Shown one piece after another: positions 14,967-18,066 of a stretch of DNA of 64,000 bases. Location: assembly GCA_963665845.2 (NCBI GenBank), contig OY762492.1, forward strand, positions 3,104,001-3,168,000. The letters run 5' to 3'. Within the stretch, counting starts at the first letter, position 1; every line of letters starts with the position of its first letter. The DNA is from Candidatus Poribacteria bacterium. GTDB lineage: Bacteria; Poribacteria; WGA-4E; GCA-2687025. The position numbers were made by a program, and so were the translations under genes. The notes below the pieces were generated by a model. That model did no database searches. It saw nothing but the letters and a program-made list of their open reading frames with translations, and had not been told where the DNA came from.

Positions 14967-16520
14967 TTATGGCTCACTCACCGGATCGTCATCTTCGTTC
15001 TCCTCCCGCCGTTTCAGACGCTCCTGCTCATCAAAGCGGCGGAAGACCCGCTCAACCTCCTCGCGCGAATGGCGTTTGCGGACGGCGTTGTAAGCGTCCT
15101 GGGCGCGCTGGGCGTCGCCCGCCCTGGCGAAGGCGCGCGCCATGCCGAGCAGCGCGCTCATGTAGCCTTCGGGCGTCGCCTCGGAGAGACCGTACTCCAT
15201 CTCAAACGCATCTTGGTACGCCTTCGCAAAGTTGGCGTATGCCGCCGCCATGTCCATCTCCGCGCCGGGCGGCGGAGGGGGCGGCGCGCCTTCAGGGCGC
15301 GGGGCGTCTGGATGATCATGCGGAGGCGGCGGCTCCATGTCCCGCGGATCGGGCGGACTTTCAAAGCCGGGCGCAGAGAGAGGTTCCTGCTGCGCCGCTT
15401 CAGCCGCCGCAGCCGCCCGCTCCTCCCAGATGGACGGAAACCGCCGACGCTCCGGCGAAAAATCCCACGCAGGATATACAGACGGCGACTTCGGGTACGT
15501 TTCAGGAATTGGAATGTAACCGTTGTGGTAGACCGCTTTGTCCATCATGTCCAAACGCTCATAGGCGAAACTGAGATACATGTGCGCCCATGTTGGAGTC
15601 TCCTTCGAAGCGAACAACGGCTCTATTGCTGCGATCGCTTCCTCCGGGAAATCGCGCCAAAGCGCGCTTGTCGCTTGGTTCACAGCCCATGTGTCGTCTG
15701 GATACAACTCAATAAGGCGGCGGGCGGCAGTTCCTCTCTCTTCCCAGGGACTCATGGCGATCTTTAAGGCAAGACCTTCGCGCGATGTCGGGTCTTTTGC
15801 GAGCGCGCGCTCCAGATACATCTTGCCGTATTCAGGCTCCGATCTCCATTCCCATCCAGGAGCATAGGTATAAAGTTTCTGGGCCGCGGTCAGATCGTCC
15901 AGCCCCTCCACCAAAACCTCAATGATCTCCGGCGGCGTGATCTCGGAACTTTTTGGGTAGCGCGTCGTGCCGTTCAACTCAAACAGCTTCTGACGAATCC
16001 GATTCCGTCGATCTGAAAATCCGGGGACCCATGCCCATGTGGAATGTCCCGCATTGGCGAGATACTGCTCCCACTCGGAGGGGTCCCTGCTTTCCAGCTC
16101 TTTGCGTCTTTCTTCGAGACGCTTTTCAAGCTCTTCCCCTTGGACGCCCTTTGCTTCCAGTTGCTTCCGCGCAATATGAAGCCATCGCTCAATATCGGGT
16201 CCAAGGGCATCCAGGAGCGTCTTTGGTCTGGACTGTTTAGGCGTTCCTTGAACGCTGTTTGGACTTGTCTGAGAGGGGAGATCAACCGCCTGATCGCTTG
16301 AAGGCGGCGCAGGGAGGGCGGCCTCTTCAGCCGGTTCCTCCCTGTCCTTGCTTGCATGGCTGTCCTTGTTCTCGCCGCCGGCGTTGGCCGGCGCTTCTTG
16401 TTGGGCAGTTTCATCGCGCGAATCTTCGGCGAAACGGAGCGCCACAGTAAAGGCAACCGCGACGGTCAATGCCGCCAAAACTGCGAACAGCGCGAATCGA
16501 ATTTTTTTAGTACTGGTCAT
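14967..16520 (-). CDS. Membrane-anchored TPR-like protein, same family as the 45-53 kb array
   Basis: N-terminal TM, IIEVLVEGLDDLTAA, ALAKDPTSR, Pro-rich linker and C-terminal AFEMEYGLSEATPEGY...RRFDEQERLKR module. Confidence 0.8.
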   Translation of the reverse strand: MTSTKKIRFALFAVLAALTVAVAFTVALRFAEDSRDETAQQEAPANAGGENKDSHASKDREEPAEEAALPAPPSSDQAVDLPSQTSPNSVQGTPKQSRPKTLLDALGPDIERWLHIARKQLEAKGVQGEELEKRLEERRKELESRDPSEWEQYLANAGHSTWAWVPGFSDRRNRIRQKLFELNGTTRYPKSSEITPPEIIEVLVEGLDDLTAAQKLYTYAPGWEWRSEPEYGKMYLERALAKDPTSREGLALKIAMSPWEERGTAARRLIELYPDDTWAVNQATSALWRDFPEEAIAAIEPLFASKETPTWAHMYLSFAYERLDMMDKAVYHNGYIPIPETYPKSPSVYPAWDFSPERRRFPSIWEERAAAAAEAAQQEPLSAPGFESPPDPRDMEPPPPHDHPDAPRPEGAPPPPPPGAEMDMAAAYANFAKAYQDAFEMEYGLSEATPEGYMSALLGMARAFARAGDAQRAQDAYNAVRKRHSREEVERVFRRFDEQERLKRREENEDDDPVSEP

Positions 16521-18066
16521 AGGTCAGTTGCCCTTCATGGTTGCTGTGCAGCTTGTATTTTGAATCATGGTTTTCCCAGTCATCTCCATCGAGAGGATCT
16601 CCGCCCGGAGGGGTGTTGTGAGTGTGCGCGTAACCCATGCCAGCCCATCTGATGTACGTAGCTGCATCGCGGACAGGGTTAACCATCACGCAGACGTCCG
16701 AGTCTGCGACGGGAAAAACAACCTCGCCTGCAGCATTTAAAACGAGCGAATGATGTTCCAAGTTGACAGCATGACCTGCCTCATGAGCAATGACGATCGG
16801 CAGGATTGCATCAGCCTCGTCATTATAAAACTGTCGAATCCGAACAGTGTAGATCACGCAGTCAGAATTATTCGGGGTGTATGGTTCAGGCCAATCAGGT
16901 CCTATTGTTCCGCCGAAGATCACATTTTCTGCGCCAACTGGAATTGGGGAGCGATCTTCATAGATATGAATGGGCCTCTGAAGAATGCCGCCGATGCCTC
17001 CTTGGCAGAAGTTTACGTGGTTGCCATCCCACTCATCTTCGCCAATGATATGCACTTCCATTGGGAGATTGCGGGCGTAGCCTGTTTCTCCGTTCGGACC
17101 CACCTCTGAGCGAATGAAGACGTCTTTGTACTCTGGGTGGAGATGGCGGTGGATTCCTCCGATCATGAAGCCGCGGTATTCTTCGAAAACCGTGAACCCA
17201 TCGCCGGAATTCACGCCAGACTGACGCCATTCGCCTGCTTGATCCCTGTCGCGCCAGGTCTGCTCTTCAGTAAATCGATCAGCTGTCTGTGTGTCCATAA
17301 TAGTGGAGCTCCCGTACCAATAAAGATGGTTACGGTCCCATTCGTCGGCAAGCTTGTTGCCCGCGACGCCTTCCAACAATGTGCCGGACCTGTAGTGGTG
17401 CGCCTCTTCCCCGTCGTCCTTTGGAATCGTGAGGGTATCGGACTTGCTCGTCTTGCCTCCGGCGCTCACGGTCGCTTGAATTTCACCGTAAGCGGCGTAG
17501 TCGTTGCAGACGATGTTCACAGGAATCACAATCCAAGCTGGCGTTTTAACAGGCCTTGTCGTCCAACTGGCTGTGACAGATGTCAAATCCTTGTCGCCTC
17601 CAGACCATGTGATTTTGCTTTTTCCGTTTGCGTCAGTATACAACGTCTGATCTTGCTCCGCGGCCGGCGCAAAGTAAAGATCCGCGCCCGTGTTGTCAGG
17701 GAGGTTCCAGTTGCTGTCGTTCATGTACCGGCCTTCGTAGCTCGTCACCCCAGACAGTGCAAATGTGATGGAACCCTCACCAGAAGGGGTGGCGTCCGTT
17801 GCTGCGGTGAAGACGATCGTTTCCGTATCCGAGCTTTCTCCGACGCCGGTTGTTGGCATCCAGCTTTCCCATCCGTCCTGAGGCGTGAGCGTGATCTTAT
17901 AGGACGGGGGCGCGATTTCGCGGGCGGCGTGTCCGCGCATCAGCGCGACGCTTGCGAGAGCAAGCAAGAGGAAGAGAGCGGTCAGCGCGCGACTTGCGAA
18001 GGAAGGATTCTGTTCATTATGTTTCTCATGAGTTGCTCCTTCATCTGAAAGTTTTTCGGCGGTCAA
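16507..18066 (-). CDS. Secreted putative zinc metallopeptidase (metzincin-like), 5' end possibly frameshifted
   Basis: Hydrophobic signal h-region, DGFTVFEEYRGF, zinc motif HEAGHAVNLEH and downstream CVM (Met-turn-like). Overlaps the next gene by 14 bp. Confidence 0.65.
   Translation of the reverse strand: MTAEKLSDEGATHEKHNEQNPSFASRALTALFLLLALASVALMRGHAAREIAPPSYKITLTPQDGWESWMPTTGVGESSDTETIVFTAATDATPSGEGSITFALSGVTSYEGRYMNDSNWNLPDNTGADLYFAPAAEQDQTLYTDANGKSKITWSGGDKDLTSVTASWTTRPVKTPAWIVIPVNIVCNDYAAYGEIQATVSAGGKTSKSDTLTIPKDDGEEAHHYRSGTLLEGVAGNKLADEWDRNHLYWYGSSTIMDTQTADRFTEEQTWRDRDQAGEWRQSGVNSGDGFTVFEEYRGFMIGGIHRHLHPEYKDVFIRSEVGPNGETGYARNLPMEVHIIGEDEWDGNHVNFCQGGIGGILQRPIHIYEDRSPIPVGAENVIFGGTIGPDWPEPYTPNNSDCVIYTVRIRQFYNDEADAILPIVIAHEAGHAVNLEHHSLVLNAAGEVVFPVADSDVCVMVNPVRDAATYIRWAGMGYAHTHNTPPGGDPLDGDDWENHDSKYKLHSNHEGQLTYDQY

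Follow-up and report, generated by a model that had tools for sequence, protein, structure and literature searches.

We analysed a 64,000-nucleotide stretch of DNA from a Candidatus Poribacteria bacterium (assembly GCA_963665845.2, contig OY762492.1, positions 3,104,001 to 3,168,000), referred to below as the window. Two adjoining genes on its minus strand are the subject of this report: P1, which encodes a predicted exported zinc protease, and Q1, which encodes a tetratricopeptide repeat (TPR) protein with a predicted membrane anchor. Relatives of Q1 that stand without a protease gene, here called orphans, form an array elsewhere in the window. The protease-partner cassette with its orphan arrays is real, conserved and apparently undescribed. 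The pair has the following features.

16507..18066, minus strand: protease gene P1 of the EEYRGF-metzincin family, 519 codons from a doubtful TTG start
17982..18041, minus strand: ribosome-binding-site-like AAGGAG (18036-18041) with an ATG at 18029, out of frame with P1
17926..17988, minus strand: putative Sec signal peptide of P1, hydrophobic core and likely cleavage region, judged by eye; conserved in close homologs
17422..17913, minus strand: Ig-like domain predicted by the structure model, resembling Gram-positive pilin and adhesin domains
17167..17358, minus strand: signature segment NKLADEWD...GDGFTVFEEYRGF, from the family alignment
16540..17136, minus strand: predicted metzincin catalytic domain with HEAGHAVNLEH and a Met-turn-like CVM, from the model and profile matches
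14967..16520, minus strand: cognate partner gene Q1, 517 aa, overlapping the stop of P1 by 14 bp
16431..16520, minus strand: basic N-terminus and hydrophobic helix of Q1, likely an inner-membrane anchor, judged by eye
15951..16220, minus strand: variable helical N-domain of Q1 (mean identity 0.32 among 16 genome copies)
15516..15950, minus strand: TPR core of Q1 (mean identity 0.56 among the 16 copies)
15006..15266, minus strand: near-constant C-terminal helical module of Q1 (mean identity 0.91), also a DNA repeat common to all copies

The motifs that a sequence-only reading of this DNA had pointed out in P1 are present on the minus strand (GDGFTVFEEYRGF at 17167-17205, HEAGHAVNLEH at 16753-16785 and CVM at 16684-16692), and the 14-bp overlap between the 3' end of P1 and the start of Q1 was confirmed. 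Its description of P1 as secreted holds only if the TTG at 18066 is used, which is doubtful, because the AAGGAG-linked ATG is out of frame. Translation from this ATG, at 18029, meets a stop after 15 codons in P1, and in the sequence of the paralog the same ATG is in frame. P1 may be silent, since its likely start codon is out of frame. Over the start region, the assembly was matched without gaps by contigs from four runs, all of one study with at most three samples, possibly including the source sample.

A structure model of P1 (pLDDT 83, pTM 0.86) predicted a pilin-type Ig domain and a metzincin-fold domain. The Ig-like domain aligned with BcpA (3kpt; VIA Z 8.9, rmsd 3.0, 123 residues aligned). 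The catalytic domain (model residues ~264-463) gave middling scores against snapalysin (rmsd 3.3 over 122 residues, Z 8.2), archaemetzincin (Z 7.9) and ADAM8 (Z 7.1), and the best 60 matches of the P1 profile in the PDB were all zinc metallopeptidases, individually weak (E 0.0015-0.08). P1 is presumed to have zinc-dependent proteolytic activity. Snapalysin (PDB 4hx3) and archaemetzincin (PDB 3zvs), the nearest catalytic folds, have HExxHxxxxxH plus C-x-M in common with P1; however, they are only 12-17% identical to it and lack the Ig-like and EEYRGF parts. Foldseek with the whole of P1 returned only the Ig-like domain. P1 had no match in Pfam or NCBIfam at E 0.01, including no Pfam match to Tox-MPTase, and did not reach the cut-offs of the named peptidase families M10, M12, M43, M54 and Tox-MPTase; Atlas naming gave only unnamed clusters at 0.92-0.97, with reprolysin-like leads below 0.9. 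A promoter and terminator scan of 14600-18300 stayed at chance level.

A profile search with the P1 family found 3308 clusters at E<=0.001, which makes it a large unnamed metzincin family with a conserved partner. Of the 145 aligned sequences, 139 have HExxH after the EYRG motif, and the third zinc ligand in these 139 is H (130) or D (5). At position 8 of the zinc motif N is found in 73 and G in 36 of the 139, so that the N for G remarked on earlier in P1 is the family norm. The methionine of CVM, Met-turn-like by its sequence, is kept in at least 90% of the 145 sequences, and in the signature segment D, D, G, D, E, Y, R and G are invariant; this acidic segment possibly binds metal. C-terminal to the catalytic part, some homologs carry extra domains of the fn3, Ig or dockerin-like type, and in other phyla Calx-beta, PKD, CBM or F5/8 domains precede it. 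Single homologs lay marginally above the cut-off for Peptidase_M10, Reprolysin_4 or Astacin, two scored far under that of the NCBIfam archaemetzincin model, and a metagenome scan found no close relatives. Neither the protease nor the partner family has a Pfam or NCBIfam name beyond generic TPR.

The model of Q1 was all-helical with a TPR core, which likely binds the protease. Foldseek with this model gave no match at E<=0.001; its weak matches include NlpI-Prc and LbcA-CtpA chains (E 0.04-0.07). Among 16 genome copies, the anchor region has a mean identity of 0.70, and other Poribacteria partners carry, as judged by eye, an N-terminal hydrophobic anchor or a lipoprotein-like signal. As had been noted, all five array genes at 45226-53156 align with Q1 (46-51% by BLASTP over 358-453 aa) and share its near-invariant C-terminal module, but the N-terminus of Q1 differs from theirs and the 34-nt promoter-like element repeated in the array is absent before Q1. 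It is, however, not the sixth member of a family of six: the source genome (G000) holds 18 copies, 17 near-full and one fragment, beside two protease genes. The second pair (C1:684581-687741), whose protease is spread over three frames, has the same 14-bp junction, as does the sister genome G013 of the same genus. Contigs of the four runs covered this broken gene without gaps; an assembly error behind it, or behind the out-of-frame start of P1, was rejected as far as the contigs of that one study show. The source strain may have one or zero working proteases beside its 17 partner genes.

To define adjacency in Poribacteria, we surveyed 40 protease loci, taken roughly in rank order with some short contigs skipped, and scored a same-strand partner gene within 700 bp. 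A profile built from six window genes only found a partner at 29 of the 40 loci and in 20 of 26 genomes; it lay upstream at 19 loci, downstream at 8 and on both sides at 2. The wider profile A4, partly circular in that it was built partly from these neighbours, found a partner at 34 of the 40. Of the six loci that it missed, one is a degraded fragment, and at two the neighbours are anchored genes in tandem that match TPR weakly. At five further Poribacteria loci outside profile A4, a downstream partner was found in all five (E 2.5e-21 to 1.9e-42). As background to these counts, G000 contains 42 TPR-like frames outside the family in 4 Mb.

For other phyla, 80 of 404 confirmed places were kept, of which 72 were non-Poribacteria by title and 64 had at least 900 nt downstream. 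Fifty downstream genes were chosen by eye as exported (48 of them from the 64 loci), and 43 of these 50 matched a leave-one-out profile. One exported TPR family was found downstream at 41 of the 64 testable loci, as compared to 1 of 49 upstream genes, and Pfam TPR matches occurred in 25 of 52 scanned non-Poribacteria partners. The partner is downstream in the source genus and most other phyla, and upstream in most loci of family f9. The earlier expectation that the protease would sit upstream of this family across genomes is therefore borne out for the adjacency itself, which is conserved in Poribacteria and many phyla, but not for its direction, since the partner is more often upstream in Poribacteria (19 vs 8 of 40). 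Similarly, the rule that an immunity gene lies directly downstream describes some lineages but not most family-f9 loci.

Other gene arrangements were seen around these proteases. At five loci (L112, L122, L124, L139 and L175) the downstream partner has a copper-amine-oxidase N-terminal-type domain, with TPR matches in three of the five, which amounts to a third architecture. Dockerin-type proteases at L078, L086, L087, L092, L098 and L101 are followed by tandem exported genes of 400-740 aa that are WD40-like by appearance. The gene immediately before the protease belongs to the OmpA family in four non-Poribacteria loci (L123, L135, L171 and L185), which hints at a peptidoglycan-associated context.

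The orphans of the window and their promoter-like element are as follows.

51777..53156, minus strand: orphan partner A1, 85% identical over the 288-aa variable part to the partner of the C24 protease of G013
50202..51701, minus strand: orphan partner A2
48641..50128, minus strand: orphan partner A3, mosaic relative to A2
47037..48566, minus strand: orphan partner A4
45226..46938, minus strand: orphan partner A5
53193..53226, minus strand: first of five promoter-like elements (TTGCG and TATGCT, 17-18 nt apart), the others being at 51773, 50198, 48637 and 47009

One copy of this putative 34-nt element precedes each of the five array genes and 11 family copies genome-wide; it is carried by eleven orphans and not by the coupled partners. 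A3 and A2 are 99% identical before the TPR core and 83% within it, their differences falling almost only in the core. Of the three G013 proteases, one is 70% identical to P1; the remaining two, at 37-39% identity, have no counterpart in G000. A1 and its twin B4 nevertheless match the partner of one of these two (C24) at the 85% given above. For a further two G000 orphans, identity to the partner of the second divergent protease is 77% and 71%, again in the variable part. Judged by these identities, the array would hold partners of non-self type, as had been proposed, some orphans being closest to partners of proteases absent from the genome. They could have been gained alone or left from lost pairs; both origins fit.

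The layout is that of homogeneous polyimmunity loci, with two five-gene arrays in G000 (one member a fragment), from which intact enzyme genes are absent, and a different content in G013; in G029, a six-gene partner array has a decayed protease remnant. Seven family loci were examined in G013. For six of them, the sequences on either side lie in separate parts of G000; at the remaining one, a block of one protease and three partners occupies a site that is empty in G000. By eye, the G013 C24 insertion showed no target-site duplication. This shuffling is likely caused by recombination through the constant module.

Several repeats accompany the family. In three family-f9 Poribacteria arrays (L072, L074 and L079), a copy of one gene end recurs between partner genes, about six times in L072; we take it to resemble the 3' end of guaB. 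N-terminal protease fragments are interspersed in these arrays, which seem to have grown as insertions or duplications recurred at one gene end. The pattern of a REP-like palindrome, GTCATTCCCGC-N3-6-GCGGGAATC, is matched 711 times in contig C1 when both strands are counted. It occurs in the window at 869, 6235, 22571, 30909, 32000, 32212, 42437, 55110, 59425 and 62245, and once upstream of the G013 C24 cassette.

Co-divergence was assessed on 25 pairs, each of a whole protease and one whole neighbour, with other loci dropped. Protease and partner trees were in large part congruent (Mantel rho 0.60, with a p value of 0.0005 that kinship overstates), and the partner of the nearest protease ranked first or second in 18 of the 25. 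Within genomes, protease identities of 0.87, 0.59 and 0.27 corresponded to partner identities of 0.97, 0.79 and 0.18. At the level of sequence, this shows inheritance as a cassette, not binding.

The dependency between the two genes was one-sided. Among 176 genomes, 45 had both, 13 the partner only, 3 the protease only and 115 neither, with 10 candidates scored per genome, differing thresholds and a profile (A4) that derives from neighbours. The three protease-only genomes have partners below the cut-off (G007), divergent partners (G068) or a weak fragment (G016). At five partner-only loci examined, there was no protease within 13-14 kb. Broken or partial genes at the 40 Poribacteria loci were more frequent among proteases (16 of 46) than among partners (11 of 69 by script, Fisher p 0.025; 7 of 69 after inspection, p 0.002), some breaks possibly being assembly errors. 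The dN/dS of the P1-Q1 pair and the orphans was 0.40-0.46, as compared to 0.11-0.14 for five flanking genes: pair and orphans evolve faster than their flanks and are still under purifying selection. In the three G013 proteases, 9-11 consecutive C separate the likely start codon from the signal peptide (L067:7960-8250, L068:12100-12330, L069:8400-8740), leaving one copy in frame and two out of frame; this could reflect phase variation or a homopolymer assembly error.

The enzyme is rarely found without its neighbour, and the neighbour is kept, multiplied and diversified without the enzyme, which is the pattern of polyimmunity loci as described in PMC3482391. We consider it probable that P1 and Q1 are a cognate inhibitor or immunity pair with orphan arrays, and the evidence leans to a similar degree towards a cassette that acts like a peptidase-inhibitor or effector-immunity system outside the classical polymorphic toxin and potempin families. 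In such a two-gene cassette, the predicted protease would be exported via Sec, and the anchored TPR partner, facing the periplasm, would bind and block its own protease and guard envelope proteins. Specificity would reside in two parts of the partner, its variable N-domain and its TPR core. Spare TPR genes would cover protease variants of related bacteria, so that the partner likely protects the cell against its own proteases and those of its neighbours. Cassettes would be swapped by recombination between two stretches of constant DNA, the C-terminal module and the leader. The matching enzymes may still be produced by kin that share the habitat, which would explain why partners are retained as proteases decay.

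Several observations weigh against this interpretation. Simple linkage also yields co-divergence and co-occurrence, and kin are not independent. No region of the pair or orphans had a dN/dS above 1. Three of the six loci missed by profile A4 have a gene that looks IS-like directly upstream, in the partner's place. In an independent set of 55 distant metagenome loci, with duplicates and short contigs dropped, a partner match lay downstream at only 5 of 33 and upstream at 0 of 22, which implies that many proteases of the family function in its absence. Between the partner type of Poribacteria and the Ig+TPR type of other phyla, the only match is a TPR segment of 57 columns (P 93%). Gene-family expansion is common in G000, so that partner expansion alone weighs less. 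The main gap is the delivery of a foreign protease to a guard anchored in the inner membrane: G000, 90% complete, has no Hcp or VgrG match and one secretin, and P1 has no Por-type tail. The known TPR partners of bacterial proteases are activators or adaptors (LbcA, PMC8764530).

The scan that found no such tail in P1 gave 53 Por-secretion-tail matches in G000, many of them in tandem arrays of large paralogs (C1 1881499-1900587 and 3892897-3912705).

An adaptor, activator or export chaperone that anchors the protease and presents substrates, with extra copies widening the substrate range, seems improbable to us. Such a role suits the TPR fold and the weak NlpI-Prc and LbcA-CtpA matches, and would account for proteases rarely being without a partner, but it fits poorly with 13 genomes that have partners and no protease match, with orphans that are under purifying selection and match proteases absent from the genome, and with 17 near-full partners kept in G000 for at most one intact protease. 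LbcA-CtpA and NlpI-Prc pair a membrane-anchored TPR protein with an envelope protease, as here, but are single-copy housekeeping systems and not fast-evolving arrays. The LbcA and NlpI proteins activate a serine protease and deliver substrates to it (PMC8764530 for LbcA). Of the functions suggested earlier, namely inhibitors, chaperones or adaptors, the first is favoured over the other two because partners persist under purifying selection without proteases.

We give about the same low probability to the TPR family being variable surface or host-interaction proteins of a sponge symbiont, with the protease a dispensable accessory that trims or releases them. Partners do outnumber and outlast proteases, they vary as mosaics and have their own promoter-like elements, their low-complexity linkers might serve as cut sites, and TPRs are the commonest repeat class in Poribacteria genomes according to PMC3909097. 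However, the protease-TPR adjacency recurs in many phyla, where architectures differ and the TPR is the common element, and the pair co-diverges one to one. Least probable is that the two genes merely co-travel in a mobile or duplicated block and are not directly linked in function: although family loci lie at G000/G013 synteny breakpoints, one G013 cassette is at a site empty in G000 and matching trees are expected from linkage alone, the linkage persists where the gene order differs (partner upstream at 19 loci, downstream at 8) and where other phyla have a different partner architecture, and the genes overlap or nearly touch at their junction.

Comparison with known systems places the proposed inhibitor or immunity cassette among several relatives. 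In the KLIKK/potempin system of Tannerella forsythia (PMC9890683), secreted peptidases, metzincins included, are each encoded beside a gene for a membrane-anchored specific inhibitor that guards the cell surface. Likewise, we found an adjacent, co-oriented gene for a membrane-anchored exported protein, and many Poribacteria partners are upstream and lipoprotein-like. In contrast, potempins are beta-barrels of 98-132 aa, whereas Poribacteria partners are helical TPR proteins of 270-590 aa; orphan arrays are not mentioned for potempins in the text available from this source, and P1 has no KLIKK or T9SS tail. The HExxH peptidase VgrG2b of Pseudomonas aeruginosa is toxic in the periplasm and is bound and neutralised by a signal-peptide protein from the adjacent gene, PA0261 (PMC6899460). 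Unlike P1, with its Sec-type signal and Ig-like domain, VgrG2b is a type VI secretion system (T6SS) spike fusion, and the accessible description of PA0261 gives conserved cysteines, not TPRs. The T6SS phospholipase D PldB and the Sel1-repeat proteins PA5086-5088 (PMC13736854) offer helical-repeat immunity proteins in several paralogs per enzyme, as here; there, the three immunity proteins act on one cognate enzyme.

Polyimmunity loci (PMC3482391) resemble the partner arrays in their tandem protective paralogs, which vary between close relatives, are kept without toxins and have broken enzyme fragments among them. A difference is that the protease fragments in the partner arrays are often N-terminal. 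Polymorphic toxins have a fixed delivery N-terminus and swapped C-terminal toxins (PMC3482391), whereas the P1 family has a constant peptidase core with C-terminal fn3, Ig or dockerin-like extras. The analogy drawn by the sequence-only reading thus extends to the orphan arrays, but not to a swapped C-terminal toxin domain; no delivery machine was found, and coupling is weak in distant members (5/33).

It is tentatively possible, though we would not call it probable, that the family forms a cross-phylum system of antagonism, in which metzincins attack the envelopes of related bacteria, anchored TPR proteins are a new inhibitor fold class, and host-sharing Poribacteria stockpile and recombine inhibitors while switching their own proteases off. 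If true, such a system would be undescribed. Part of the large Poribacteria TPR complement, which PMC3909097 treats as candidate host-interaction proteins, may instead serve protection among bacteria. If inhibition were confirmed, TPR would be a metzincin inhibitor scaffold that we did not find in print. Literature searches for the EEYRGF motif, for TPR inhibitors of metzincins and for orphan immunity with a metalloprotease gave nothing, subscription papers and supplements being largely outside their reach. Poribacteria papers, by title and start of abstract, held nothing on a protease-TPR pair, and the supplementary tables of PMC3482391 could hold the family under another name. P1 with Q1, and the G013 C24 protease with orphan A1, offer natural matched and mismatched pairs for specificity studies.

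Elsewhere in the window, a 1050-aa gene (56285-59437, minus strand) has weak Eco57I-type methylase matches below the cut-off and may represent a fused restriction-modification enzyme. A 1408-aa subtilase with FG-GAP repeats, encoded at 23125-27351 on the minus strand, is a further large protease predicted to be secreted.

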